From Escherichia coli (GTDB lineage Bacteria > Pseudomonadota > Gammaproteobacteria > Enterobacterales > Enterobacteriaceae), in NCBI RefSeq assembly GCF_003334305.1, contig NZ_QOWS01000033.1: a DNA stretch of 35,452 bases, one strand, 5' to 3'. The first letter of the stretch is position 1. The number at the start of each line of letters is the position of its first letter. The notes below the pieces were generated by a model. The model saw nothing but the letters and a program-made list of their open reading frames with translations, did not search any database and was not told where the DNA came from. Shown piece by piece: positions 1 to 35,163 of this stretch. Both the position numbers and the translations under genes were made by a program.

Positions 1-2
1 TT

Positions 3-497
3 GGTTTAGGAGAAGGCTCTGCATTACCGGTTGGGGTGCCTGTTCCGTGGCCTTCAGCCACTCCGCCAACAGGCTGGCTGAAATGCAATGGTGCGGCTTT
101 TTCTGCTGAAGAATACCCGGAACTGGCAAAGGCTTACCCGACCAATAAATTGCCTGATTTACGTGGTGAGTTTATTCGTGGCTGGGATGATGAACGTGGT
201 GTGGATAGTGGGCGAACTCTGCTTTCATCGCAAGGAGATGCTATTCGAAACATTACTGGCGGTTTTGGTCAGTTGCGCGTAAACAGCGAAATTAATGCAA
301 TTGTCGATGTTCAAAGTGTGAGTGGGGCTTTTTACGGAGGTACCTCAGTCCGGAATAACATCAATGTGTCTATGACATACGCTAATGACCGAAAAATCCG
401 ACAAGATGTTCACTTCTCGGCGGCAAATGTTGTTCCAACAGCAAATGAAAATCGTCCACGTAACATCGCCTTTAATTATATTGTGAGGGCCGCATGA
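3..497 (+). CDS. Tail fibre protein, C-terminal variable part (5'-truncated by window edge; constant part lies upstream)
   Basis: Frame is open from position 3; the translation (GLGEGSALPVGVPVPW...GWLKCNGAAFSAEEYPEL...) resembles phage tail-fibre tips; the stop overlaps the start of the next gene (ATGA at 494-497). Confidence 0.65.
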   Translation, partial: GLGEGSALPVGVPVPWPSATPPTGWLKCNGAAFSAEEYPELAKAYPTNKLPDLRGEFIRGWDDERGVDSGRTLLSSQGDAIRNITGGFGQLRVNSEINAIVDVQSVSGAFYGGTSVRNNINVSMTYANDRKIRQDVHFSAANVVPTANENRPRNIAFNYIVRAA

Positions 498-1102
498 TGA
501 ATAAAGCTGTATTAAATAGCAAACTCATTGCCATAAAAGCGGGAGACATTATCATTTATAATTATGATGGTGAAACGCGGGAATATATTTCTACATCAAC
601 TGAATATCTCGCTGTCGGCGTCGGTATCCCGGCATGTTCTTGTTTAGATGCTCCGGGCTCAAACAAAGCTGGTTATGCAATTTGTCGTTCTGTAGATTTA
701 AACTCATGGGAATATGTGCCAGACCATCGCGGTGAAGTTGTCTATAGTACCGAAACGGGAGATACCAAAGAAATCACAGCTCCGGGTGATTACCCTGAAA
801 ATACAACCATTATCGCCCCATTAACGCCATACGATAAATGGGATGGTGAGAAATGGGTGACCGATACTGAGGCACAGCATAGCGCCGCAGTAGACGCGGC
901 AGAAGCACAGCGTCAGTCACTGATTGATGCTGCAATGGCTTCCATCAGTCTGATTCAGCTGAAATTACAGGCCGGACGGAAGTTGATGCAGGCAGAAACA
1001 ACCCGGCTTAACGCCGTGCTGGATTACATTGACGCGGTGACGGCAACAGATACCAGCACCGCGCCTGATATTATTTGGCCTGTATTCCCTGAGACTGATT
1101 AA
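494..1102 (+). CDS. Tail fibre assembly chaperone (Tfa / P2 G-like)
   Basis: 202-aa ORF immediately after the tail-fibre gene with start/stop overlap; position and size fit a tail fibre assembly protein. Confidence 0.65.
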   Translation: MMNKAVLNSKLIAIKAGDIIIYNYDGETREYISTSTEYLAVGVGIPACSCLDAPGSNKAGYAICRSVDLNSWEYVPDHRGEVVYSTETGDTKEITAPGDYPENTTIIAPLTPYDKWDGEKWVTDTEAQHSAAVDAAEAQRQSLIDAAMASISLIQLKLQAGRKLMQAETTRLNAVLDYIDAVTATDTSTAPDIIWPVFPETD

Positions 1103-1292
1103 CCTCAATTAGTATTGGTTCGCCTTTCTCATTAATTGTTAGCTCCATGCCCTGAGGAATTTCTGTCATAGTAAAAAACCAGTTGTCCTCCGGTAATTCA
1201 ATAGCCCCGGTCACGTCATGAAGACCGGGGATTACTTCAGTCAAAGTAACTGGATTAAACAGGCGCACAATAAACCCTCCAGGAAAAAGCAT
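1071..1292 (-). CDS. Alternative (inverted-orientation) short tail fibre assembly protein
   Basis: Minus-strand ORF convergent with the plus-strand assembly gene, downstream of the minus-strand fibre cassette; start placed at an internal Met; arrangement mirrors Mu G-segment / e14 cassettes. Confidence 0.35.
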   Translation of the reverse strand: MLFPGGFIVRLFNPVTLTEVIPGLHDVTGAIELPEDNWFFTMTEIPQGMELTINEKGEPILIEVNQSQGIQAK

Positions 1293-1596
1293 TTGATGAT
1301 GGTCTGCCGTCGTACATCTGGCAGCGGGCATAAAAGCCGGTATTTGTTACCTGATCATCCACGATCATTGAAACATGAACATTATTAGGTGTGCTCTCGT
1401 AATCCGTTCTTATTCTTTCCGCGATACTGATAAAACGTGAAAGTTTAGGCAGTGCAATTGGGTAAACAACTTTAGCCAGTCCATTATCATTAGATCCACC
1501 GGTTCCAAATACTTCTATTGCACCGTCTGACCAGCGTATCCATGCACCATTGGCATTAGCTCCTCGCTGAATGACATATCTGGCTTCTCCCAAACC
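1255..1596 (-). CDS. Alternative tail-fibre C-terminal cassette, promoterless, expressed only after inversion
   Basis: Minus-strand frame encodes ...VGLGEARYVIQRGANANGAWIRW...; the VGLGE junction matches the GLGE junction at the window start; the Met codons at 1638 lie outside the inverted repeat and are probably incidental. Confidence 0.5.
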   Translation of the reverse strand, partial: GLGEARYVIQRGANANGAWIRWSDGAIEVFGTGGSNDNGLAKVVYPIALPKLSRFISIAERIRTDYESTPNNVHVSMIVDDQVTNTGFYARCQMYDGRPSSNAFSWRVYCAPV

Positions 1597-1610
1597 AACG
1601 TTTAAGAAAA
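1585..1610. repeat. Invertase crossover site (hix/gix-like), right end of invertible segment; partner half-site at 1-14
   Basis: 1585-1598 TTCTCCCAAACCAA is the reverse complement of window positions 1-14 (TTGGTTTAGGAGAA) with one mismatch; 1585-1610 has the form TTCTCCCAAACC-AA-CGTTTAAGAAAA, resembling the 12-2-12 Hin/Gin crossover sites. Confidence 0.55.
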
Positions 1611-1659
1611 TGCAGAGGTAACAGCTAACTGGCATCATCTCCGGTTTTTATTCAGGGGG

Positions 1660-2232
1660 ATGATCATGCTTATTGGCTATGTACGCGTGTCAACAAATGA
1701 CCAGAACACCGATTTGCAACGTAATGCACTGAACTGCGCGGGATGTGAGCAGATTTTTGAGGACAAAATCAGTGGCACTAAGTCCGACAGACCGGGGCTG
1801 AAAAAACTACTCAGGACACTATCGGCAGGAGACACGCTGGTTGTCTGGAAGCTGGACAGGTTGGGGCGCAGTATGCGGCATCTTGTTACGCTGATAGAAG
1901 AGTTGCGCCAGCGTGGTGTGAATTTCAGAAGCCTGACTGACAGTATTGATACCAGTACCCCAATGGGTCGTTTCTTTTTTCATGTCATGGGTGCCCTGGC
2001 TGAAATGGAACGCGAACTGATAGTTGAACGTACCAGGGCAGGGCTGGCTGCAGCTCGTGCCAAAGGCAGAGTAGGTGGACGCCGTCCTAAGTTGACCACC
2101 GAACAGTGGGCACAGATTGGGCGTTTACTCGAGGCCGGAGAATCAAGACAGCGTATTGCACTGATTTTTGATGTAGGCGTTTCTACCATTTATAGAAAAT
2201 TTCCGGCAAATAAGATCAATGAATCCCCCTGA
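1660..2232 (+). CDS. Serine DNA invertase (Pin/Gin/Hin/Cin family)
   Basis: N-terminus IGYVRVSTNDQ with the catalytic Ser context, a resolvase-type catalytic domain and a C-terminal HTH (GVSTIYRKF); lies directly beside the right crossover site. Confidence 0.85.
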   Translation: MIMLIGYVRVSTNDQNTDLQRNALNCAGCEQIFEDKISGTKSDRPGLKKLLRTLSAGDTLVVWKLDRLGRSMRHLVTLIEELRQRGVNFRSLTDSIDTSTPMGRFFFHVMGALAEMERELIVERTRAGLAAARAKGRVGGRRPKLTTEQWAQIGRLLEAGESRQRIALIFDVGVSTIYRKFPANKINESP

Positions 2233-2374
2233 ATCAGCATTATGTTGATTATCCCTGCAAGCAGACAAATACCGTTATTTTGTGTGAATAACGACACAAC
2301 TGCGCTTAGCTGTTTGTCAGGCACAATCACTTCAACATAGGGCGAAGCCTAATCCAATCAGGAGGTTCGCCACT

Positions 2375-3547
2375 ATGGCTCAGGATTACCACCACGGGGT
2401 GCGCGTTGTTGAAGTCAACGAAGGCACCCGATCTATTACCACGGTGAGCACCGCCATCGTGGGTATGGTCTGCACGGGCGATGATGCCGATGCAAAAATG
2501 TTTCCTCTTAATAAACCCGTGCTGATCACTGATGTGCTGACTGCCAGCGGTAAAGCGGGTGAGTCAGGTACTCTGGCCCGTTCGCTGGATGCCATCGCTG
2601 ACCAGGCAAAACCCGTGACCATTGTTGTGCGTGTGCCGCAGGGTGAAACGGAAGACGAAACCACGACCAATATCATCGGCGCAGTGACTGCTGAAGGTAA
2701 AAAAACAGGTATGAAAGCCCTGTTATCTGCCCAGTCACAGCTCGGCGTTAAACCGCGCATTCTCGGCGTGCCAGGCCACGACACCAAGGCGGTAGCTACT
2801 GAGTTGCTGAGCGTGGCGCAAAGCCTGCGTGGATTTGCTTACCTGTCAGCGTATGGCTGCAAGACAGTGCAGGAGGCGATCACTTACCGCGAAAACTTCA
2901 GCCAGCGCGAAGGGATGCTGATCTGGCCTGACTTTACTGGCTGGGACACGGTGCTGAATGCCGAAGCAACGGCATATGCCACCGCCCGTGCGCTTGGTCT
3001 GCGCGCCAAAATTGACGAGCAGACCGGATGGCACAAAAGCCTGTCCAACGTGGGCGTGAACGGTGTCACCGGAATTTCTGCAGATGTGTTCTGGGATCTG
3101 CAGGACCCGGCAACCGATGCAGGTCTGCTGAACCAGAACGACGTCACCACGCTTGTGCGTAAAGACGGTTTCCGCTTCTGGGGTTCCCGCTGCCTGAGTG
3201 ATGACCCGCTCTTTGCCTTCGAAAACTACACCCGCACGGCGCAGGTGCTGATGGACACGATGGCAGAAGCACACATGTGGGCGGTGGATAAACCGCTTAA
3301 CCCGTCGCTGGCCCGCGACATTATCGAAGGTATCCGCGCCAAAATGCGCAGCCTGGTCAGTCAGGGCTATCTCATTGGTGGTGATTGCTGGCTGGATGAG
3401 TCGGTGAACGACAAAGACACGCTGAAAGCCGGAAAACTCACCATCGACTACGACTACACGCCAGTGCCGCCACTTGAAAACCTGATGCTGCGTCAGCGCA
3501 TCACCGATCAGTACCTGGTGAATTTCGCCAGCCAGGTCAGCGCGTAA
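2375..3547 (+). CDS. Contractile tail sheath protein (P2 FI-like)
   Basis: 390-aa ORF first in the conserved FI-FII-E-T-U-D order; size and position fit the sheath. Confidence 0.8.
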
Positions 3548-3556
3548 GGGGACAAC

Positions 3557-4072
3557 ATGGCATTACCACGCAAATTAAAACACCTGAACCTGTTTAACGA
3601 CGGGAACAACTGGCAGGGGATCGTTGAGTCGCTGACGCTGCCGAAATTTACCCGCAAATATGAGAAGTATCGCGGCGGCGGAATGCCGGGTGCGGTGGAT
3701 GTGGATCTGGGGCTTGATGACAGTGCGCTGGACACAGAATTTTCCATTGGTGGTACTGAATTGCTGCTGTTTAAACAGATGGGTAAAGCCACGGTGGATG
3801 GCATCCAGCTGCGCTTTACCGGCTCTATTCAGCGTGACGATACCGGGGAAGTGCAGGCCGTGGAGCTTGTCGTGCGTGGACGTCACAAAGAAGTGGATTC
3901 CGGCGAGTGGAAGACGGGCGAAAGCAACACCACCAAAGTGACCAGTACCAACAGCTACGCGAAGCTGACCATCAATGGTGAGGTGCTCTATGAAGTGGAC
4001 CTTATCAACATGGTGGAAATTGTGGACGGTGTGGACCTGATGGAAGCGCACCGCAACGCCCTCGGCCTCTGA
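3557..4072 (+). CDS. Tail tube protein (P2 FII-like)
   Basis: 171-aa ORF directly after the sheath gene. Confidence 0.8.
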   Translation: MALPRKLKHLNLFNDGNNWQGIVESLTLPKFTRKYEKYRGGGMPGAVDVDLGLDDSALDTEFSIGGTELLLFKQMGKATVDGIQLRFTGSIQRDDTGEVQAVELVVRGRHKEVDSGEWKTGESNTTKVTSTNSYAKLTINGEVLYEVDLINMVEIVDGVDLMEAHRNALGL

Positions 4073-4126
4073 TATATCTGAACGGCGCGGGATACCGCGC
4101 CAGAACCCAATTGACAGGACAGCAAA

Positions 4127-4429
4127 ATGAGCGATAAGCAGACTGAAAAGACCATTCAACTGGATACCCCCATCAAGCGCGGTAAAACAGAAATCACCGA
4201 AATTGTGCTGCGTAAACCGCAGTCCGGTGCGCTACGCGGTACACGCCTGCAGGCCATTATGGATATGGATGTAAACGCGATGATGACCGTGATCCCCCGC
4301 ATCTCCAGTCCGGCACTGACTGCACAGGAAATTGCAGAGATGGACCCGGCAGATCTCACTGCCATGTCGGTTGAGGTTGTCACTTTTTTGTTGAAGAAGT
4401 CGGTGCTTGCCGGTTTACCGACAGCCTGA
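4127..4429 (+). CDS. Tail assembly chaperone E
   Basis: 100-aa ORF between tube and tape measure; contains the slippery run TTTTTTG near its 3' end. Confidence 0.75.
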   Translation: MSDKQTEKTIQLDTPIKRGKTEITEIVLRKPQSGALRGTRLQAIMDMDVNAMMTVIPRISSPALTAQEIAEMDPADLTAMSVEVVTFLLKKSVLAGLPTA

Positions 4430-4563
4430 CGGTTGACGATCTGGTGGCAGATATCGCCACCATTTTTCACTGGCCGCCATCCGTTACTGACGTTATGCCG
4501 CTGACCGAAGTGCTGGAATGGCGGTATAAAGCGATTCAGAGAAGCGGGGCCAACGATGAGTGA
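4127..4563 (+). CDS. Tail assembly chaperone E+E' made by a programmed -1 frameshift at TTTTTTG (4384-4390)
   Basis: The -1 frame after the slippery site stays open to a TGA at 4561-4563, encoding ...ADIATIFHWPPSVTDVMPLTEVLEWRYKAIQRSGANDE and overlapping the tape-measure ATG at 4556. Confidence 0.6.
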
Positions 4564-7500
4564 TAACAACCTGCGTCTGCAGGTCATTCTTAATGCGGTT
4601 GACAAGCTCACCCGCCCATTTCGATCTGCGCAGGCCAGTTCAAGAGAACTGGCTGCTGCTGTCAAAAAATCCCGCGATGCAATAAAGCAGCTTGATCAGG
4701 CCGGGAGCAGTCTGGACAGCTTCCGAAAGCTGCAGGCAGAAAATCAGAAATTAGGCGACAGGCTGAACTATGCCCGCCAGCGTGCAAATTTGCTCAGTCA
4801 GGAACTGGGAGCGATGGGGCCGCCTTCGCAACGTCAGGTTGTTGCTCTGGGCCGTCAACGGCTGGCTGTTCAGCGCCTGGAAGAACGCCAGAAAAAGCTG
4901 CAGCAGCAGACGGCGCTTGTGCGTGCTGAACTGTACCGGGCGGGAATTTCTGCGAAAGACGATGCGGGAGCAACTGCCCGTTTAGCCCGTGAAACATCAC
5001 GTTATAACCAGGAACTTTCGAAACAGGAGGCGCGGCTGAAGCGACTGGGGGAAGCTCAGCGCAGGATGAATGCAGCGCGTGCCAGTTATGCCCGTTCGCT
5101 GGAGGTGCGTGATCGTATTGCAGGTGCCGGAGCCACCACCACGGCTGCAGGGCTGGCAATGGGTGCGCCAGTGATGGCGGCAGTAAAAAGCTATACCAGC
5201 ATGGAAGATGCCATGAAAGGTGTGGCAAAGCAGGTCAATGGTCTGCGTGACGATAATGGCAACCGCACTGCACGTTTTTATGAAATGCAGGATGCCATCA
5301 AGGCTGCCAGCGAACAGTTGCCGATGGAAAACGGTGCGGTGGACTTCGCTGCACTGGTTGAAGGTGGTGCGCGCATGAACGTCGCAAACCCTGACGACAG
5401 CTGGGAAGATCAGAAACGTGACCTGCTGGCCTTCGCCAGTACGGCAGCAAAGGCGGCAACAGCCTTTGAGCTGCCAGCGGATGAACTGTCAGAAAGTCTG
5501 GGGAAAATCGCCCAGCTCTACAAAATCCCCACCCGCAATATTGAACAGCTCGGTGATGCGCTGAACTATCTGGATGATAACGCCATGTCGAAAGGGGCAG
5601 ACATCATTGATGTGATGCAACGTCTGGGCGGTGTGGCTGACCGTCTGGATTATCGTAAAGCGGCGGCGCTGGGTTCCACCTTCCTGACACTGGGCGCTGC
5701 GCCGGAGGTTGCAGCCAGTGCAGCAAACGCGATGGTGCGTGAATTGTCCATTGCCACCATGCAAAGCAAGAGTTTCTTTGAAGGGATGAATCTGCTGAAA
5801 CTCAATCCTGAAGTGATTGAAAAGCAGATGACGAAGGATGCGATGGGAACCATCCAGCGCGTGCTGGAGAAGGTAAACGCGCTGCCGCAGGACAAGCGCC
5901 TGTCTGCCATGACTATGTTGTTTGGTAAAGAGTTTGGCGATGACGCGGCGAAACTGGCAAACAACCTGCCGGAACTGCAGCGTCAGTTAAAACTGACAGC
6001 GGGCAATGATGCGCTTGGCTCCATGCAGAAAGAATCCGACATTAACAAGGATTCACTTTCTGCGCAGTGGTTGCTGGTCAAAACCGGAGCGCAGAACACC
6101 TTCAGCAGCCTGGGCGAAACGCTGCGCCAGCCGCTGATGGATATTCTGTACACGGTGAAAAGCGTCACGGGGGCGTTGCGTCGCTGGGTGGAAGCTAACC
6201 CGGAACTGACAGGCACACTGATGAAAGCATCGGCTGTTGTGGCTGCGGTTACCGTCGGCCTCGGCACCTTAGCGGTGGCGCTGGCTGCAGTGCTGGGGCC
6301 GCTGGCAGTGATCCGTCTGGGATTCTCTGTGTTGGGTATCAAAACGTTATCTTCCGTTACGGCAGCAGTAACTCGAACCAGCAGCGCGTTGTCCTGGCTG
6401 GCTGGCGCACCACTGGCACTGCTGCGACGCGGGCTTGCTTCATCGGGCAACGCCGCAGGTTTACTTACTGCGCCGTTGTCGTCTTTGCGCCGCACGGCAT
6501 CACTGACGGGAAATGTCCTGAAAACTGTAGCAGGTGCGCCGGTTGCACTTTTGCGGTCTGGATTATCCGGTTTACGTGCGGTTGCTGTGATGTTTATGAA
6601 TCCACTGGCAGCACTACGCGGCGGGCTGGCTGCCGCAGGCACGGTGCTGCGAGTACTGGCATCTGGTCCACTGGCGATGTTGCGCGTTGCCCTGTATGCC
6701 GTATCTGGTCTGTTAGGTGCTCTGCTCAGTCCGATAGGTCTTGTGGTTACTGCACTGGCGGGTGTGGCACTGGTTGTCTGGAAATACTGGCAACCCATCA
6801 CCGCATTTCTCGGTGGCGTGGTGGAAGGATTCAAAGCGGCGGCAGGTCCCATCAGTGCAGCGTTCGAACCGCTTAAGCCTGTGTTCCAGTGGATTGGTGA
6901 CAAAGTGCAGGCGCTGTGGGGCTGGTTTACTGATCTGCTGACGCCCGTTAAGTCGACTTCTGCCGAACTGCAGAGCGCAGCGGCAATGGGGCGACGATTC
7001 GGGGAGGCACTGGCGGAAGGGCTGAATATGGTCATGCATCCGCTGGACTCCCTGAAATCCGGCGTTTCCTGGTTGCTGGAGAAGCTCGGCATTATCAGTA
7101 AAGAGGCCGCAAAGGCAAAACTGCCGGAAAGCGTGACGCGTCAGCAACCTGCGACGGTGAATGCAGACGGTAAAGTGATGATGCCATCGGGTGGTTTTCC
7201 GTCATGGGGATATGGCTTTGCGGGGATGTATGACAGCGGCGGCTATATCCCGCGCGGGCAGTTTGGCATCGTCGGTGAAAACGGGCCGGAAATTGTTAAC
7301 GGCCCGGCAAATGTGACCAGCCGGAGAAATACAGCTGCACTGGCTGCCGTTGTTGCCGGAATGATGGGCGTTGCTGCCGCGCCTGCAGAGCTTCCACCGT
7401 TGCACCCTTTGGCACTTCCCGCGAAAGGCGGCGAAGCGATGGTGAGTCGTGCAGCCACTGTGCCGCCCGTTCAACGGATTGAGGCACCGATGCAGATCAT

Positions 7501-7633
7501 CATTCAGACGCAGCCAGGACAAAGTGCGCAGGATATTGCGCGGGAGGTGGCCCGCCAGCTTGATGAACGTGAACGCAGGCTGAAGGCAAAAGCCAGGAGT
7601 AACTACAGCGATCAGGGGGGATACGACGCATGA
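4556..7633 (+). CDS. Tail tape measure protein (P2 T-like)
   Basis: 1025-aa ORF with a coiled-coil-like N-terminal region, central hydrophobic Ala/Leu/Gly repeats and the canonical position after E/E'. Confidence 0.85.
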   Translation: MSDNNLRLQVILNAVDKLTRPFRSAQASSRELAAAVKKSRDAIKQLDQAGSSLDSFRKLQAENQKLGDRLNYARQRANLLSQELGAMGPPSQRQVVALGRQRLAVQRLEERQKKLQQQTALVRAELYRAGISAKDDAGATARLARETSRYNQELSKQEARLKRLGEAQRRMNAARASYARSLEVRDRIAGAGATTTAAGLAMGAPVMAAVKSYTSMEDAMKGVAKQVNGLRDDNGNRTARFYEMQDAIKAASEQLPMENGAVDFAALVEGGARMNVANPDDSWEDQKRDLLAFASTAAKAATAFELPADELSESLGKIAQLYKIPTRNIEQLGDALNYLDDNAMSKGADIIDVMQRLGGVADRLDYRKAAALGSTFLTLGAAPEVAASAANAMVRELSIATMQSKSFFEGMNLLKLNPEVIEKQMTKDAMGTIQRVLEKVNALPQDKRLSAMTMLFGKEFGDDAAKLANNLPELQRQLKLTAGNDALGSMQKESDINKDSLSAQWLLVKTGAQNTFSSLGETLRQPLMDILYTVKSVTGALRRWVEANPELTGTLMKASAVVAAVTVGLGTLAVALAAVLGPLAVIRLGFSVLGIKTLSSVTAAVTRTSSALSWLAGAPLALLRRGLASSGNAAGLLTAPLSSLRRTASLTGNVLKTVAGAPVALLRSGLSGLRAVAVMFMNPLAALRGGLAAAGTVLRVLASGPLAMLRVALYAVSGLLGALLSPIGLVVTALAGVALVVWKYWQPITAFLGGVVEGFKAAAGPISAAFEPLKPVFQWIGDKVQALWGWFTDLLTPVKSTSAELQSAAAMGRRFGEALAEGLNMVMHPLDSLKSGVSWLLEKLGIISKEAAKAKLPESVTRQQPATVNADGKVMMPSGGFPSWGYGFAGMYDSGGYIPRGQFGIVGENGPEIVNGPANVTSRRNTAALAAVVAGMMGVAAAPAELPPLHPLALPAKGGEAMVSRAATVPPVQRIEAPMQIIIQTQPGQSAQDIAREVARQLDERERRLKAKARSNYSDQGGYDA

Positions 7634-8115
7634 TGATGGTGCTGGGATTGTACGTGTTTATGCTGCGCACCGTGCCGTATCAGGAGCTGCAGTATCAACG
7701 CAGCTGGCGACATGCGGCAAACAGCCGGGTAAACCGACGTCCGTCCACGCAGTTTCTGGGACCGGACAACGACATGCTGACGCTTTCCGGTGTTCTTATG
7801 CCGGAGATAACAGGTGGCAGGCTGTCGTTGCTGGCACTGGAGCAGATGGCAGAACAGGGGAAAGCATGGCCCCTGATTGAAGGCAGCGGCACGATTTATG
7901 GCATGTATGTGATTGAGGGACTGAATCAGACTAAAACGGAGTTTTTCCGCGACGGTATGCCGCGCCGGATTGAGTTCACCCTGTCGCTCAAACGGGTGGA
8001 TGAATCCCTGTCCGATATGTTCGGTGATCTCAGTGCGCAACTGAATAATCTGCAGGAAACGGCAACGTCTGCCTTAAGCGATATCAGTAAAACGGTGGGA
8101 GGGCTGCTGTCGTGA
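7630..8115 (+). CDS. Tail protein U-like
   Basis: 161-aa ORF whose start overlaps the tape-measure stop; position matches P2 gene U. Confidence 0.75.
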   Translation: MMMVLGLYVFMLRTVPYQELQYQRSWRHAANSRVNRRPSTQFLGPDNDMLTLSGVLMPEITGGRLSLLALEQMAEQGKAWPLIEGSGTIYGMYVIEGLNQTKTEFFRDGMPRRIEFTLSLKRVDESLSDMFGDLSAQLNNLQETATSALSDISKTVGGLLS

Positions 8116-9212
8116 ATTTCAGCTCTGAACTGCTTAACAAAAGCAACAAAACTCCGGCATTCAGCATCAGTATTGAGGGCAGGGATATCACTACTGTGCT
8201 GGATAACCGCCTGATGAGTCTGACTCTGACGGACAATCGGGGCTTTGAAGCAGACCAGCTTGATCTGGAGCTGGACGATGCCGACGGGAAAATCGTGCTG
8301 CCGCGCCGTGGTGCGGTCATTACGCTGGCGCTGGGCTGGAAGGGGCAGCCGCTTTTCCCGAAAGGGGCATTCACGGTGGACGAGATTGAACACACTGGCG
8401 CACCGGACCGCCTGACTATCCGGGCGCGAAGTGCTGATTTTCGGGAAACGCTGAATACCCGCCGTGAAAAATCGTGGCACAAGACCACCATTGGGGAAGT
8501 GGTGAAGGAGATAGCCGCGCGGCACAAGCTGAAGATGGTACTGGGTAAAGACCTGTCGGATAAGCTCGTGGAGCATATAGACCAGACTAATGAGAGTGAC
8601 GGTAGTTTTCTGATGCGGCTGGCGCGCCAGTACGGTGCTATTGCGTCGGTGAAAAATGGCAATCTGTTATTCATCCGGCAGGGACAGGGCAAAAGTGCCA
8701 GCGGTAAACCACTGCCGGTGATCACTATCACACGTAAGGACGGCGACAGTCACCGCTTTACCCTGGCAGATCGCGGAGCCTATACGGGCATAATTGCCAG
8801 CTGGTTGCATACCCGCGAACCCGCGAAGAAAGAAAGCACCACGGTGAAGCGTAAGCGCAGGACTAAGAAGCAGAAGAAAGAGCCGGAAGCGAAGCAGGGC
8901 GATTACCTGGTGGGTACGGATGAAAACGTGCTGGTACTTAATCGCACTTATGCCAACCGGAGCAACGCTGAACGGGCAGCGAAAATGCAGTGGGAACGCC
9001 TGCAACGCGGCGTTGCGTCATTCTCGCTACAACTGGCGGAAGGGCGGGCAGATCTCTACACGGAAATGCCAGTGAAAGTCAGTGGCTTTAAACAGCCGAT
9101 AGATGATGCGGAATGGACCATTACGACTCTGACACATACCGTCAGCCCGGATAATGGTTTTACGACCAGTCTTGAGCTTGAAGTGAAGGTTGATGATCTC
9201 GAAATGGAATGA
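8112..9212 (+). CDS. Tail protein D-like (late tail gene)
   Basis: 366-aa ORF with a GTG start overlapping the U stop; position matches P2 gene D. Confidence 0.75.
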   Translation: MNFSSELLNKSNKTPAFSISIEGRDITTVLDNRLMSLTLTDNRGFEADQLDLELDDADGKIVLPRRGAVITLALGWKGQPLFPKGAFTVDEIEHTGAPDRLTIRARSADFRETLNTRREKSWHKTTIGEVVKEIAARHKLKMVLGKDLSDKLVEHIDQTNESDGSFLMRLARQYGAIASVKNGNLLFIRQGQGKSASGKPLPVITITRKDGDSHRFTLADRGAYTGIIASWLHTREPAKKESTTVKRKRRTKKQKKEPEAKQGDYLVGTDENVLVLNRTYANRSNAERAAKMQWERLQRGVASFSLQLAEGRADLYTEMPVKVSGFKQPIDDAEWTITTLTHTVSPDNGFTTSLELEVKVDDLEME

Positions 9213-9302
9213 TTCTTCACAATGGAGAACTTTTAAGTTTGAAAAATGGAATAATGCGATATCATTATTGTGAATTTAGCAAAAATGGGGAGAACTCGAA
9301 AA

Positions 9303-9521
9303 ATGATGATTTGCCCACTGTGTGGAAGTGCCGCCCATACTCGCAGCAGTTTTCAGGTATCTTCATTGACCAAAGAGCGTTACAACCAGTGCCAGAACAT
9401 TAACTGCAGCCATACTTTTGTTACCCATGAAACTTTTGTTCGTTCGATTGCAACGCCAAAAGAGTCAAATCCGGTTCAGCCGCATCCTCATAAATTTAAA
9501 CAGGTGGGTTTGCCGATTTAA
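9303..9521 (+). CDS. ogr: Ogr/Delta-type zinc-finger late transcription activator
   Basis: CPLCGSAAHTRSS...YNQCQNINCSHTF is a C4 zinc-finger pattern like P2 Ogr; start placed at the Met preceding CPLC, with a GGGAGA Shine-Dalgarno upstream. Confidence 0.75.
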   Translation: MMICPLCGSAAHTRSSFQVSSLTKERYNQCQNINCSHTFVTHETFVRSIATPKESNPVQPHPHKFKQVGLPI

Positions 9522-9585
9522 ATGGCGACATAACTACATGATTTAAAACTATACTTTTCTATAAGTTGAGGTTAAATTAACAATG

Positions 9586-9762
9586 CCTGACGTTAGCGGG
9601 GATTTATCCCCACTCCGTAGATATGTAGTTTGTCGCTTTGCGACTGCGGACCGATTACCTGATTGCCATGTAATCGGACGCCGACTTGTTAAGCTTTCTG
9701 GGCTAACTGGTTGTTATTTTTTATTTAGTTAGGGCCATGCGCTTGCGCTAAGAGACGTCAGG
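9586..9762 (+). ncRNA. Candidate structured non-coding RNA upstream of the reverse transcriptase (retron msr/msd-like or DRT-type ncRNA)
   Basis: Long-range inverted repeat CCTGACGTTAGCG (9586-9598) with CGCTA-AGAG-ACGTCAGG (9746-9762) enclosing hairpins at 9598-9611, 9632-9644 and 9651-9677; no convincing ORF inside. Confidence 0.4.
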
Positions 9763-9782
9763 TATCTATGGAGGAACAAGTT

Positions 9783-9956
9783 ATGGATACAAACGAACTT
9801 GGCTTAGTTAAGGCGCGTGTTGAACTGATCACCGCTATGCTCAAATGCGCAACCGCGTTTGTTGGCTTAGTTGGTGCGGTTTACGCCGTTCTTAACATGG
9901 CCTTCAACTACAACAATTTAACTCATGACAATAGAAGTTCAAAGGTGGGAAGATAA
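9783..9956 (+). CDS. Small hypothetical protein with one hydrophobic helix (possible small effector, or frameshifted RT N-terminus)
   Basis: Only open frame across 9768-9956; GGAGGA Shine-Dalgarno about 7 nt before the ATG at 9783; hydrophobic stretch AFVGLVGAVYAVLNMAF; overlaps the RT start by about 30 nt in another frame. Confidence 0.3.
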   Translation: MDTNELGLVKARVELITAMLKCATAFVGLVGAVYAVLNMAFNYNNLTHDNRSSKVGR

Positions 9957-10698
9957 ATTTGAGATTAAGCCCGGGGTTTGGGTTTATGTCCCAAGCGTTG
10001 AGGCACGTAAAGTCGGAGGGAAGATACTTCAGGCTGTCAGAAACAAGTGGATTCCGCCACTCTATTTTTACCATCTAAGAACTGGTGGGCATCTTAAAGC
10101 TGCCAGATTACACTTAAAAAGTGATTTTTTTGCCGTTGTTGATATTAAACAATTTTTTCAGTCAACGAGCCGTAGTCGTATCACCCGTGATCTAAAGAGC
10201 TACTTCACCTATTCTCAAGCGCGGGAAATCTCAACATTTTCAACTGTAAGAAACTTGTCCCATAGTCCACATAAGCATGTCCTCCCTTTTGGTTTTGTTC
10301 AATCTCCAATACTTGCAACCCTCTGCTTAGATAAAAGTTATTTTGGTAGCTTACTACGCCGATTGAACAAACATCATGATCTCAAGCTAAGTGTGTTTAT
10401 GGATGATGTGATCATCTCGTCAAACGATTTGGCCCAATTACAAGCGGCTTACGACGAAGCACTAGTGGCAATGCGTAAATCTGGTTATCAAGCCAACATG
10501 AGTAAAACTCAGGCACCATCGTCAAAGATTAGCGTGTTTAATTTAACTTTGAGTAAGGGAGTTATGAAAGTCACATCTCAGAAAATGAGTGACTTCCTGA
10601 TTGATTTCTATTCAAGCAATTATGAGCCGCACAGAATAGGGGTCAAAAACTACGTCGAAGCTGTTAATCCAGGGCAAGCGAAACTCTTTAAGTTGTAA
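9925..10698 (+). CDS. Compact reverse transcriptase (retron/Abi/DRT-like RT domain)
   Basis: RT motifs readable in the translation: fingers FEIKPGVWVYVPS, motif A VVDIKQFFQS, motif B LPFGFVQSPILATLCL, catalytic YxDD box FMDD; AT-rich with rare codons (AGA, ATA, CTA). Confidence 0.75.
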   Translation: MTIEVQRWEDKFEIKPGVWVYVPSVEARKVGGKILQAVRNKWIPPLYFYHLRTGGHLKAARLHLKSDFFAVVDIKQFFQSTSRSRITRDLKSYFTYSQAREISTFSTVRNLSHSPHKHVLPFGFVQSPILATLCLDKSYFGSLLRRLNKHHDLKLSVFMDDVIISSNDLAQLQAAYDEALVAMRKSGYQANMSKTQAPSSKISVFNLTLSKGVMKVTSQKMSDFLIDFYSSNYEPHRIGVKNYVEAVNPGQAKLFKL

Positions 10699-10806
10699 TT
10701 GCGATCGCATGTAGTAGCAACTGGGCTTGACTGAATGTCTGCCGCCATTTTGCCGCCACTACTAAAGAAAAAAGGGCTACGCTTTCACGTAACCCCTTGA
10801 TTTATT

Positions 10807-11169
10807 TGGTGGAGCTGGCGGGAGTTGAACCCGCGTCCGAAATTCCTACATCCTCGGTACTACATGCTTAGTCAGTCTTTACATTCGCTTGCCAGCTGCG
10901 GACGGACACGCCACTAACAAACTAGCCTGATTAAGTTTTAACGCTTCAACCCCAGGCAGGGCTTCCACGCGATCTCTTTTGGGTTTGACCTCTCTTGATC
11001 CCCGTCCTAAGAGCGGAGGCTAGGGAGAGAGGGCTCTAAGCAGGTTATTAAGCTGCTAAAGCGTAGTTTTCGTCGTTTGCGACTATTTTTTGCGGCTTTT
11101 TACGAGGCCAACCGCCCCTCGGCATGCACCTTGGGTTTCGCAAATCCCGTCGAATCCAGAATCAGCCCC
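10807..11169 (-). ncRNA. ssrA: tmRNA (SsrA)
   Basis: Reverse complement matches E. coli tmRNA from GGGGCTGATTCTGG (5' end at 11169) to GCTCCACCA (3' end at 10807), including the tag-coding region. Confidence 0.95.
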
Positions 11170-13305: not shown

Positions 13306-14967
13306 TTACGCTGCAAGCAGTTCTTTCGCATTCGCCAGTGTATTACGTGTGACTTCACTGCCACCAAGCAGGCGCGCCAGCTCTTGTAACCGCGCTTTTT
13401 TATTCAGGGATTGCATATGCGTTTCTGTCATCGCACCATCGGTTTCTTTGCTGACAAAATAGTGTTGATGACCACATCCCGCGACTTGTGGCAGGTGGGT
13501 AACACACATCACCTGAGTTGATTCGCCGAGTTGACGCAGCAGTTTGCCGACAACTGCCGCTGTTGGACCGCTAATACCTACATCCACTTCATCAAAAATC
13601 AGTGCCGGGGTTTCCATTTTACGCGCCGTGATGACCTGGATTGCCAGTGCGATGCGGGACAATTCACCACCGGATGCGACTTTGGCAATAGGCTGCATTG
13701 GCTGACCTGGGTTGGTGGTTACCCGAAACTCAATACGATCGGCACCGTCAGCGCCCAGGTGATGCTCGTCAAATTTAACATCGATCGTAAACTGCCCATG
13801 CGGCATTGAGAGCGCATGCATACTGTCGGTGATCAGCTGTGCAAGTTCTTCTGCATATTGCTGGCGTTGTTGGTGTAATGCGCGCGCGATTTCCAGTGCC
13901 TGCTGATGATGTTTCGTTACCGCCAGCGCAAGCGTTTCTTGTGAGTCGGCCTGATCGTCCAGTTGCTGCTGTTCTTCCAGTAGCGACTGGTAATACTGTG
14001 GCAATGCCTCAGGGCTGACGTGATGTTTACGTGCCAGCGAAATCTGTTTTGAGATGCGCTGTTCAAGTTCAAATAGTCGGTTGGGATCGAGATCCAGACG
14101 ATCGCAGTAGTGGCGCAGTTCATCGCTGGCTTCAGCAATCTGGATGGTAGCTTCTTCCAGCATATCAAGTACGCCGGACAGTTTGCTGTCCATGCCAATC
14201 AATTCGCTCACCAGTTGTTTAGCCGTGTAAAGCTGACTTTGCAGGTTTGCGTCTTCACCGTCGGCCATTAATGCCAATGCATTCTGGCTGGTGGTCAGCA
14301 ATTGACCGCTGTTCGCCAGACGTTTGTACTCTTCGTCGATTTGTTCAAACTCTCCGGGCTGCGGATTAAATTCGTTAAGTTCTTTTAATTGGTATTGCAG
14401 CAGTTCCGCACGGGCGGCGCGTTCCTGACTTAACTGTTGATGATGCGCGAGGTCACGGCAGCTTTGATGCCACAACTGATAACGTGCGGTCATTTCCTGC
14501 AGTAGAGAGGTTTCATTGGCATAGCCATCAAGCAGGAATTTTTGGTGCTCAGGTTTGGTGAGTAATTGATGAGCGTGCTGACCATGGATCTGAATCAGCA
14601 ACTGACCCAGTTCGCGCAGTTGTGACAGAGGAACAGCTGTACCGTTGATGAAACCACGGGAGCGACCATCGCTGCTGATCACTCGACGAAGCAAACATTC
14701 ATGCCCGTCTTCAAGCTGATTTTCTTCCAGCCAGCGCAGAGCCGCTGGCGTATCTTTCAGAGAAAAACGGGCGCACAGGTCAGCGCGAGCAGCGCCGGTA
14801 CGCACCATGTCGGCTTCAGCGCGACCACCGAGACAAAGACCGAGGGCATCTATTGCAATAGATTTACCCGCGCCGGTCTCGCCAGTTATTACGGTCATGC
14901 CGCTATGAAAATCAATCTCAAGCTCACGAACGATAGCAAAGTTGCTGATGGTCAGTTGTGCCAACAT
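13306..14967 (-). CDS. recN: DNA repair protein RecN
   Basis: 553-aa SMC-like protein with an N-terminal Walker A (GETGAGKS) and LexA boxes upstream. Confidence 0.95.
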
Positions 14968-14995
14968 AGTCGTTTTCCTGTATGAAAAACCATTA

Positions 14996-15033
14996 CTGTT
15001 ATTGTGTACAGTATAAACTGGTTTTATATACAG
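14996..15033. promoter_or_regulatory. LexA (SOS) operators in the recN promoter region
   Basis: CTGT-N8-ACAG at 14996-15011 (CTGTTATTGTGTACAG) and CTGG-N8-ACAG at 15018-15033, directly upstream of recN on the minus strand. Confidence 0.6.
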
Positions 15034-15052
15034 TAAAGAGGCTGGCGTAAAA

Positions 15053-15931
15053 TTAGAATAATTTTTTTGACCAGCCGAGCTTGGTGCTTAATGTGTTGAA
15101 ATAACTGTAATCTTTCGGATGAATCAGATTCAGATGGTAATCACAGCGACGAATCAGGACATCTTCACCTTCCTGAATCGGCAGTGCTATCTGGCTGTCG
15201 CAACTGATTTCCAGGTCGTTACGGCGATGCGAAAAACGCAGACGGATCGTGCTGCTGCTGTTTATGACCAGTGGTCGTGCTGACAACGTATGCGGGAACA
15301 TGGGCACCAGGGTAATCGCATCCAGAGAGGGGGTCAGAATAGGACCGCCTGCAGAGAGGGAATAGGCGGTGGAGCCTGTTGGCGTCGAAATAATTAGTCC
15401 ATCAGATCGCTGAGAAAACGCAAAGATCTCGTCGATATACACTTCGAACTCAATCATATGCGCCACTTTGCCTGGATGAAGCACCACTTCATTTATCGCG
15501 GTGCTGATGCGTTTCTGGCAATCTTGCTGACAGACTTGCGCTTCCAGCAAAAAACGTTTCTCGCTGATGTAGTGGCCTTCCAGCACATCGGCTAACTGTT
15601 GCTGGGCGTTATCGGGGTCAAGGTCAGTCAAGAAACCCAGGTTGCCACGGTTGATTCCAATAACTTTAATATCGTAACGGGCGAGTGTGCGCGCCGCGCC
15701 CAGCATATTACCGTCGCCACCAACGACTACCGCGAGATCAGCTAGTTGCCCAATCTCCGCGAGCGTGCCAGTTTTCACATTCTTCAGTTGCAGTTCGTGA
15801 GCGATTTGTTGCTCAACGATGACCTCGTAACCTTTTGTGCACAGCCAGCGGTAGAGCATTTCATGTGTTGTCAGTGCAGTAGGGTGCCGTGGGTGTCCCA
15901 CAATGCCAATACACTTGAAATGATTATTCAT
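15053..15931 (-). CDS. nadK: NAD kinase
   Basis: 292-aa translation with the GGDG motif ([14 protein letters not shown]); conserved neighbour of recN and grpE. Confidence 0.9.
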
Positions 15932-29039: not shown

Positions 29040-29075
29040 ATAAAAAAGGCCCCCCGATTTGGGAGGCCTTATTGT
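29040..29075 (-). terminator. pheA attenuator terminator hairpin
   Basis: On the minus strand GGCCTCCC-AAATC-GGGGGGCC followed by a T-run, between pheL and pheA. Confidence 0.6.
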
Positions 29076-29116
29076 TCGTCTTCGCATTCTGTTTCACACG
29101 ACGAAACGCCTCCCAT

Positions 29117-29164
29117 TCAGGGGAAGGTAAAAAAGAATGCGAAGAAAAACGGTGTGTGTTTCAT
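29117..29164 (-). CDS. pheL: pheA leader peptide, 15 aa, Phe-rich ([15 protein letters not shown])
   Basis: Direct translation of the reverse complement gives seven Phe codons in 15. Confidence 0.85.
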   Translation of the reverse strand: [15 protein letters not shown]

Positions 29165-29267
29165 GTTTGTTTCCTTAAGTGACTTTAGTACAGTACCCGT
29201 ACTGTTTTCACGCTGTCAACAAAAAACGCGCCCGAAGGCGCGTTGGCGATACACTCAATATAAAGGA

Positions 29268-32460: not shown

Positions 32461-32522
32461 CCTAAAGAATCAAGACGATCCGGTACGCGTGATTTTCTTT
32501 TCACATTAATCTGGTCAATAAC

Positions 32523-32550
32523 CTTGAATAATTGAGGGATGACCTCATTT
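32523..32550 (+). promoter_or_regulatory. Sigma-32 heat-shock promoter of clpB
   Basis: CTTGAA (32523-32528), 14-nt spacer, CCTCATTT (32543-32550), resembling the sigma-32 -35/-10 consensus. Confidence 0.5.
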
Positions 32551-32589
32551 AATCTCCAGTAGCAACTTTGATCCGTTATGGGAGGAGTT

Positions 32590-35163
32590 ATGCGTCTGGA
32601 TCGTCTTACTAATAAATTCCAGCTTGCTCTTGCCGATGCCCAATCACTTGCACTCGGGCACGACAACCAATTTATCGAACCACTTCATTTAATGAGCGCC
32701 CTGCTGAATCAGGAAGGGGGTTCGGTTAGTCCTTTATTAACATCCGCTGGCATCAATGCTGGCCAGTTGCGCACAGATATCAATCAGGCATTAAATCGTT
32801 TACCGCAGGTTGAAGGTACTGGTGGTGATGTCCAGCCATCACAGGATCTGGTGCGCGTTCTTAATCTTTGCGACAAGCTGGCGCAAAAACGTGGTGATAA
32901 CTTTATCTCGTCAGAACTGTTCGTTCTGGCGGCACTTGAGTCTCGCGGCACGCTGGCCGACATCCTGAAAGCAGCAGGGGCGACCACCGCCAACATTACT
33001 CAAGCGATTGAACAAATGCGTGGAGGTGAAAGCGTGAACGATCAAGGTGCTGAAGACCAACGTCAGGCTTTGAAAAAATATACCATCGACCTTACCGAAC
33101 GAGCCGAACAGGGCAAACTCGATCCGGTGATTGGTCGTGATGAAGAAATTCGCCGTACCATTCAGGTGCTGCAACGTCGTACTAAAAATAACCCGGTACT
33201 GATTGGTGAACCCGGCGTCGGTAAAACTGCCATCGTTGAAGGTCTGGCGCAGCGTATTATCAACGGCGAAGTGCCGGAAGGATTGAAAGGCCGCCGCGTA
33301 CTGGCGCTGGATATGGGCGCGCTGGTGGCTGGGGCGAAATATCGCGGTGAGTTTGAAGAACGTTTAAAAGGCGTGCTTAACGATCTTGCCAAACAGGAAG
33401 GCAACGTCATCCTGTTTATCGACGAATTACATACCATGGTCGGCGCGGGTAAAGCCGATGGCGCAATGGACGCCGGAAACATGCTGAAACCGGCGCTGGC
33501 GCGTGGTGAATTGCACTGCGTAGGTGCCACGACGCTTGACGAATATCGCCAGTACATTGAAAAAGATGCTGCGCTGGAACGTCGTTTCCAGAAAGTGTTT
33601 GTTGCCGAGCCTTCCGTTGAAGATACCATTGCGATTCTGCGTGGCCTGAAAGAACGTTACGAATTGCACCACCATGTGCAAATTACTGACCCGGCAATTG
33701 TTGCAGCGGCGACGTTGTCTCATCGCTACATTGCTGACCGTCAGCTGCCGGATAAAGCCATCGACCTGATCGATGAAGCAGCATCCAGCATTCGTATGCA
33801 GATTGACTCAAAACCAGAAGAACTCGACCGACTCGATCGTCGTATCATCCAGCTCAAACTGGAACAACAGGCGTTAATGAAAGAGTCTGATGAAGCCAGT
33901 AAAAAACGCCTGGATATGCTCAACGAAGAACTGAGCGACAAAGAACGTCAGTACTCCGAGTTAGAAGAAGAGTGGAAAGCAGAGAAGGCATCGCTTTCTG
34001 GTACGCAGACCATTAAAGCGGAACTGGAACAGGCGAAAATCGCTATTGAACAGGCTCGCCGTGTGGGGGACCTGGCGCGGATGTCTGAACTGCAATACGG
34101 CAAAATCCCGGAACTGGAAAAGCAACTGGAAGCCGCAACGCAGCTCGAAGGCAAAACTATGCGTCTGTTGCGTAATAAAGTGACCGATGCCGAAATTGCT
34201 GAAGTGCTGGCGCGTTGGACGGGGATTCCGGTTTCTCGCATGATGGAAAGCGAGCGCGAAAAACTGCTGCGTATGGAACAAGAACTGCACCATCGCGTCA
34301 TTGGTCAGAACGAAGCGGTTGATGCGGTATCTAACGCTATTCGCCGTAGCCGTGCGGGGTTGGCGGATCCAAATCGCCCGATTGGTTCATTCCTGTTCCT
34401 CGGCCCAACGGGTGTGGGGAAAACTGAGCTTTGTAAGGCGCTGGCGAACTTTATGTTTGATAGCGACGAGGCGATGGTCCGTATCGATATGTCCGAGTTT
34501 ATGGAGAAACACTCGGTGTCTCGTCTGGTTGGTGCGCCTCCGGGATATGTCGGTTATGAAGAAGGTGGCTACCTGACCGAAGCTGTGCGTCGTCGTCCGT
34601 ATTCCGTCATCCTGCTGGATGAAGTGGAAAAAGCGCATCCGGATGTCTTCAACATTCTGTTGCAGGTACTGGATGATGGTCGTCTGACTGACGGGCAGGG
34701 GAGAACGGTCGACTTCCGTAATACGGTTGTCATTATGACCTCTAACCTCGGTTCCGATTTGATTCAGGAACGCTTCGGTGAACTGGATTATGCGCACATG
34801 AAAGAGCTGGTGCTCGGTGTGGTAAGCCATAACTTCCGTCCGGAATTCATTAACCGTATTGATGAAGTGGTGGTCTTCCATCCGCTGGGTGAACAGCACA
34901 TTGCCTCGATTGCGCAGATTCAGTTGAAACGTCTGTACAAACGTCTGGAAGAACGTGGTTATGAAATCCACATTTCTGACGAGGCGCTGAAACTGCTGAG
35001 CGAGAACGGTTACGATCCAGTCTATGGTGCACGTCCTTTGAAACGTGCTATCCAGCAGCAGATCGAAAACCCGCTGGCACAGCAAATACTGTCTGGTGAA
35101 TTGGTTCCGGGTAAAGTGATTCGCCTGGAAGTTAATGAAGACCGGATTGTCGCCGTCCAGTAA
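32590..35163 (+). CDS. clpB: Disaggregase chaperone ClpB (Hsp100)
   Basis: 857 aa from [10 protein letters not shown]; two AAA+ modules with Walker A motifs ([16 protein letters not shown]) and a middle coiled coil. Confidence 0.95.

Follow-up and report, generated by a model that had tools for sequence, protein, structure and literature searches.

The recN promoter in this strain is the native, three-box E. coli promoter

We found that the short spacer upstream of recN in an E. coli contig (NZ_QOWS01000033.1) is almost certainly a native SOS-regulated E. coli recN promoter, at which LexA bound to tandem operators would exclude RNA polymerase until the DNA is damaged. The whole stretch of DNA that was analysed, 35,452 nucleotides in length, is referred to below as the window. 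The feature itself is already known: it is the canonical three-box LexA-controlled recN promoter, real but ordinary. What was observed directly is its sequence identity to K-12, the scores of its sites with the LexA matrix, their geometry and their conservation across species.

The spacer (14968-15052, 85 bp) lies between two open reading frames of the minus strand. On its downstream side is recN (13306-14967), a coding sequence of 553 aa whose C-terminal end reads ...ELLAA, recognized from the list of open reading frames and by comparison with K-12; on its upstream side is the 292-aa open reading frame of nadK (15053-15931), recognized from the same list and from the K-12 annotation. The RefSeq annotation of the matching DNA also gives recN and nadK, and the downstream gene is indeed recN, the encoded SMC-like DNA repair protein being identical to RecN of K-12 MG1655 in 553 of 553 residues. 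Read on the minus strand, the spacer runs ...CTCTTTACTGTATATAAAACCAGTTTATACTGTACACAATAACAGTAATGGTTTTTCATACAGGAAAACGACTATG, with a G+C content of 33%.

The spacer is 100% identical to that of E. coli K-12 MG1655. A comparison with the K-12 recN promoter had been proposed together with the original prediction of tandem LexA operators at this locus; over the promoter region, 141 of 141 bases proved identical, and the neighbouring genes are likewise nadK and bamE. The gene order of K-12 (grpE / nadK / recN / bamE / yfjF-ratA / smpB / ssrA) is retained in the window. The difference from K-12 lies 4 kb away, at ssrA, where K-12 carries CP4-57 whereas the present strain carries a P2-like prophage to which CP4-57 is unrelated. 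When a 301-base query spanning the recN promoter was used, it was matched in all 5426 of 5426 complete E. coli genomes, with 5308 records at 99% identity or more. In the divergent strain E. coli KV7 (95.3% identity over the 301-nt query), the substitutions in the spacer are found solely upstream of the predicted -35 hexamer. At the other end of the gene, the ...ELLAA C-terminus of RecN is encoded at the 3' extremity (13306-13320); RecN is degraded by ClpXP via short C-terminal signals (PMC10714372).

The three boxes are the best LexA matrix matches in the window

According to the original prediction, two operators fit the pattern CTGT-N8-ACAG, one at 14996-15011 and the other at 15018-15033. 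The coordinates were correct for both, and the first, which reads CTGTTATTGTGTACAG on the plus strand, is an exact match. The second (CTGGTTTTATATACAG on the plus strand, CTGTATATAAAACCAG on the recN strand) departs from the strict pattern by one mismatch, CTGG on the plus strand, that is, CCAG on the recN strand. The strict pattern shows no excess over chance in the window, where it occurs exactly once against 0.41 expected, and 33 of 100 shuffled windows contained at least one exact copy. When one mismatch was allowed, the window held 15 matches against 11.6 expected, a count that is not informative alone. Since the strict pattern is uninformative as a test of significance, we replaced it by a symmetrised matrix of 20 positions for the gammaproteobacterial LexA operator (SOS box, TACTG(TA)5CAGTA), built from 17 published E. 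coli sites (PMC3009722 Table 4) with recN omitted.

Over all 35,452 bases, the recN boxes provide the top three matches to this matrix, and the fourth-best match anywhere in the window scores 10.1 bits. Box 1 (15016-15035, minus strand, TACTGTATATAAAACCAGTT) is the strongest, with 24.7 bits and a p value of 2e-9 per position; it is listed verbatim as the recN site in the motif table from which the other sites were taken (PMC3009722 Table 4). Box 2 (14994-15013, minus strand, TACTGTACACAATAACAGTA), which contains the exact CTGT-N8-ACAG, scores 17.7 bits (p 5e-7 per position). Box 3 (14976-14995, minus strand, TAATGGTTTTTCATACAGGA) is degenerate and scores 14.1 bits (p 4e-6 per position); the 16-mer core of this 20-mer (14978-14993) reads ATGGTTTTTCATACAG on the recN strand. 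A degenerate third box had been suspected just upstream of the other two. The matrix match bears out its existence but not that position: recN being encoded on the minus strand, this box lies to the downstream side of boxes 1 and 2 and closer to the ATG.

Against an AT-rich background, the p values per position for boxes 1, 2 and 3 become 1.8e-8, 2.3e-6 and 1.7e-5, about 4-9x higher. We also simulated the window 300 times with a first-order Markov model; the top score was at least 24.7 bits in no simulation, at least 17.66 bits in 5 and at least 14.06 bits in 36. In a genome of 4.6 Mb, some 20 matches of 14 bits or more would be expected by chance. When the 17 known sites were scored by leave-one-out, boxes 1, 2 and 3 outranked 14, 5 and 2 of them, respectively. 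The Berg-von Hippel heterology indices obtained with this matrix were 4.2, 9.1 and 11.7 for boxes 1, 2 and 3. The published indices of the recN boxes are reportedly about 5.2, 9.4 and 11.5. The customary heterology-index limit for LexA sites is 15 (PMC11002266). Scoring with a LexA matrix, the check on which the prediction had been staked, thus did not refute it: all three boxes are within the leave-one-out range of known sites, have heterology indices below 15 and stand above chance in their sequence context. Boxes 1 and 2 pass this test comfortably and box 3 marginally; we found no evidence contradicting boxes 1 and 2.

The boxes overlie a predicted promoter

A promoter scan of 14700-15300 returned a single sigma-70-like site, on the recN strand, with a 16-nt spacer and 9 of 12 matches to the consensus. 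The count of one such site compares with 0.8 expected in shuffled sequences, so that this bare consensus match is weak evidence alone. The predicted -35 hexamer, TTTACT (15032-15037, minus strand), and the predicted -10 hexamer, TATACT (15010-15015, minus strand), both come from the scan together with conservation. Since transcription usually begins ~7 nt beyond a -10 hexamer, the start would be near 15003. A Shine-Dalgarno sequence, AGGA (14976-14979, minus strand), can be read at a distance of 8 nt from the ATG of recN.

The left arm of box 1 overlaps the predicted -35 hexamer, and that of box 2 the predicted -10 hexamer. Box 1 also covers the promoter spacer and box 2 also overlaps the predicted transcription start, so that the operators are positioned to block the predicted promoter downstream of which recN lies. 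Relative to the presumed start, box 1 would extend from about -32 to -13, box 2 from about -10 to +10 and box 3 from about +9 to +28, within the leader. The centres of boxes 1 and 2 are 22 bp apart and those of boxes 2 and 3 are 18 bp apart; box 3 overlaps box 2 by 2 bp, and its final 4 bases are the Shine-Dalgarno AGGA. A terminator scan of 14700-15300 found none between nadK and the recN promoter, the two terminator-like matches in this interval both being within the recN coding sequence. In the absence of a terminator-like site between nadK and recN, the box array could therefore also block read-through from nadK. An Rfam search over 14900-15100 found no RNA family. Elsewhere in the window, Rfam identified two ordinary features of the E. 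coli core genome, the phenylalanine leader (29040-29165, minus strand, 132 bits) and the sRNA RyfD (32471-32609, plus strand, 125 bits).

This layout suggests how the promoter would be controlled. In undamaged cells, LexA dimers would sit on the tandem operators of the recN promoter. Occupancy of box 1 would cover the -35 hexamer and the promoter spacer, and that of box 2 the -10 hexamer and the start site, and LexA at these two boxes would jointly exclude RNA polymerase. Box 3, which is weak and adjoins box 2 in the transcribed leader, would probably provide extra occupancy or a roadblock. Upon DNA damage, RecA filaments would provoke LexA self-cleavage, the operators would be vacated and recN would be strongly transcribed. 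We infer this division of labour between the boxes, as well as any cooperativity among them.

Tandem LexA sites over one promoter are also found at lexA (two boxes) and at the colicin genes (overlapping double boxes), and such arrangements are thought to tighten repression and to shape the timing of induction. The recN promoter differs from these in having three sites, with centre spacings of 22 bp and 18 bp.

LexA binding and LexA-dependent induction by damage would be expected at this promoter from the literature on the identical K-12 sequence. A passage of PMC10714372, citing Rostas et al. 1987, describes E. coli recN as having three SOS boxes and as being under tight LexA control. The gene is among the most prominent of those induced by UV (PMC3009722), and both its transcript and its protein are strongly increased after ciprofloxacin, the transcript by a log2 fold change of up to 4.6 (PMC11002266). 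In a lexA-defective strain, recN was up 128-fold, and wild-type lexA restored its control (PMC12211044). The tight SOS control of recN that had been assumed at the outset is therefore supported, the promoter being identical to that of K-12 and LexA control being documented in the literature.

The box array is conserved in Enterobacteriaceae

We scanned one genome per species, which gave 80 other Enterobacteriaceae loci with RecN proteins 83-98% identical. Counted from the ATG, boxes 1, 2 and 3 of the 80 species stand at 48, 26 and 8 nt, the sites at 48 and 26 nt being strong; in four species they are jointly shifted by 1 nt (boxes 1 and 2 at 47/25 or 49/27). In 80 of 81 sequences, the starts of the two best matrix matches are separated by 22 bp, and box 2 always begins 22 bp after box 1. 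In the other sequence box 1 is weak, and boxes 2 and 3, at a distance of 18 bp, give the two best matches.

In 78 distinct sequences, conservation is 90-100% from the -35 hexamer through to the last base of box 3, compared with 77% in the 32 bases upstream and 74% in the 8 bases that separate box 3 from the ATG. The -35 hexamer is about 99% conserved among species and the Shine-Dalgarno AGGA is nearly invariant; conservation of the hexamers is inseparable from conservation of the boxes. In the 80 species, box 2 has half-sites that are clearly more constrained than the spacer between them, the CTGT/ACAG tetranucleotides being 99.8% conserved and the N8 spacer 78%. On sequence grounds, this is a classic operator footprint. 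The same comparison is less telling for boxes 1 and 3, because core and spacer are both conserved there.

A published analysis of Salmonella recN placed three LexA boxes at distances of 8, 26 and 48 bp from the ATG, box 3 having been added by hand (PMC8072944). The recN promoter of Salmonella enterica thus shares with that of E. coli the three-box layout and the distances to the ATG, and differs from it in the spacer and outer bases of box 2. Compared with E. coli, S. enterica arizonae has a higher-scoring box 2 (24.3 bits) and a lower-scoring box 3 (10.6 bits).

In Enterobacter and some related species (loci L039, L042, L045-L047, L052, L054, L055, L065, L066 and L075 of the scan), a fourth, weak LexA-like 20-mer is present, for example TTCTGATTTTGCATCCAGCA, with scores of 8-12 bits. 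Its position is about 71-72 nt ahead of the ATG of recN, and in the alignment it falls in the columns occupied by the end of E. coli nadK; the E. coli sequence at that place scores no more than 0 bits.

Box 3 is a marginal LexA site

Box 3 may function as an operator, or its conservation may have some other cause. On the second reading, boxes 1 and 2 would be the sole functional LexA operators, and box 3 would chiefly represent a conserved element of the leader or of ribosome binding that happens to include a single good LexA half-site (ATACAG). The scores in other species lend this some substance: the box-3 position has a median of 9.8 bits, lower than every leave-one-out score obtained for known sites except one, and most species fall below threshold, with 13.7 bits or more in only 14 of 81 sequences. 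The box-3 sequence, TTATGGTTTTTCATACAGGA, is nearly invariant across species, with its ATGG left half and its spacer 95-98% conserved. That left half, which is ATGG in nearly all species, is without the C of CTG and shows no drift towards CTGT, and the spacer, 95% conserved as against 78% for that of box 2, is held more strictly than LexA recognition needs. Such a pattern is not what LexA recognition alone predicts, and it suggests a constraint beyond LexA. The Shine-Dalgarno sequence also occupies the last four bases of the box. Moreover, box 3 of Salmonella was missed by FIMO and has a heterology index of 12.97 (PMC8072944).

On the other side, box 3 is the third-best matrix match in 35 kb, and a match of its grade would arise by chance in the 85-bp spacer with a probability of only about 1e-3 (1.7e-5 under the AT-rich background x about 66 positions). 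Its offset of 18 bp from box 2 is invariant, and its heterology index of 11.7 is within the customary limit of 15. A left half of the TTGG type also occurs in known functional sites such as dinG, and three recN boxes are counted in the literature (PMC10714372, PMC8072944). We retain box 3 as a LexA site, albeit a marginal one. Because of the conservation pattern and the ribosome-binding site within the box, we nevertheless regard the leader-element reading as a possibility deserving some weight, if clearly the less likely one. It is somewhat more doubtful that the block (14976-14995) combines a weak LexA site with a second function; possible second roles would be that of a leader or translation-control element, or that of a fixed docking geometry for cooperative binding of LexA with box 2.

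Box 3 also contains an ATG (14993-14991), 26 nt upstream of the recN start and out of frame with recN. The 13-codon open reading frame that begins there has no ribosome-binding site, and its stop codon is within the recN codons. We rejected it as a gene because 1-nt indels in some species change or fuse the frame.

The neighbouring P2-like prophage

From its first base up to about position 10806, the window consists of the right arm of a P2-like prophage, inserted at the ssrA 3' end. Of this arm, 93% is covered at 95.7% identity by Klebsiella phage Kp4845-2 and its relatives, the match ending at 10804. The attachment site of the prophage is ssrA, the tmRNA gene (10807-11169, minus strand), identified by ARAGORN and by Rfam (295.8 bits). 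In the prophage arm, RefSeq annotates late control D (8112-9212), ogr (9270-9521) and a tail protein. The original prediction had put an SOS-responsive locus about 4 kb from the prophage end, and this distance was confirmed: measured against the match end at 10804 and ssrA at 10807-11169, the boxes are 4.17-4.23 kb away.

The closeness of the recN promoter to the prophage might be thought functionally meaningful, for instance as a coupling of the prophage to the SOS response, and a P2-like prophage does end at about 10804-10806, adjoining ssrA. We consider this very improbable. The order recN-bamE-yfjF/ratA-smpB-ssrA is the same in K-12, with CP4-57 at ssrA, and the recN region is present in 5426 of 5426 E. 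coli genomes, the prophage junction in only 26. Although transcription of recN runs in the direction of the prophage, the two are separated by bamE, two genes of the opposite strand, smpB and ssrA. When the visible prophage arm (1-10806) was scored with the LexA matrix, no site exceeded 8.5 bits. Given the shared recN-ssrA order in K-12, the presence of the junction in 26 of 5426 genomes and the lack of any prophage-arm site above 8.5 bits, the distance to the prophage is best regarded as coincidental synteny.

Between ogr and ssrA, the prophage arm carries a cargo module (9522-10806). It comprises a small open reading frame with a hydrophobic stretch (about 9784-9957, plus strand) and a reverse transcriptase of 257 aa (9925-10698, plus strand), the best PADLOC match of which is the retron-type RT_VI (E = 6.6e-18). 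The region upstream of the reverse transcriptase (about 9522-9780) is non-coding and contains hairpin-forming repeats, and it could be a candidate retron msr/msd; an Rfam search over this non-coding stretch found nothing.

Probable LexA control of recN in this strain

The view that the palindromes arose by chance in an AT-rich intergenic spacer and lack a regulatory role, as the 33% G+C of the spacer and the lack of window enrichment of the strict CTGT-N8-ACAG pattern might suggest, is effectively refuted by the low p values of all three boxes even under an AT-rich background, by the adjacency of sites that are also the top three of the window, by a box architecture kept in 80 species with core tetranucleotides 96-100% conserved, and by the LexA-dependent expression documented for the identical K-12 promoter.

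Beyond correct annotation, the significance of these results is slight. They indicate that recN in this strain is a normal, tightly LexA-repressed SOS gene, and that the recN locus is undisturbed by the neighbouring P2-like prophage.
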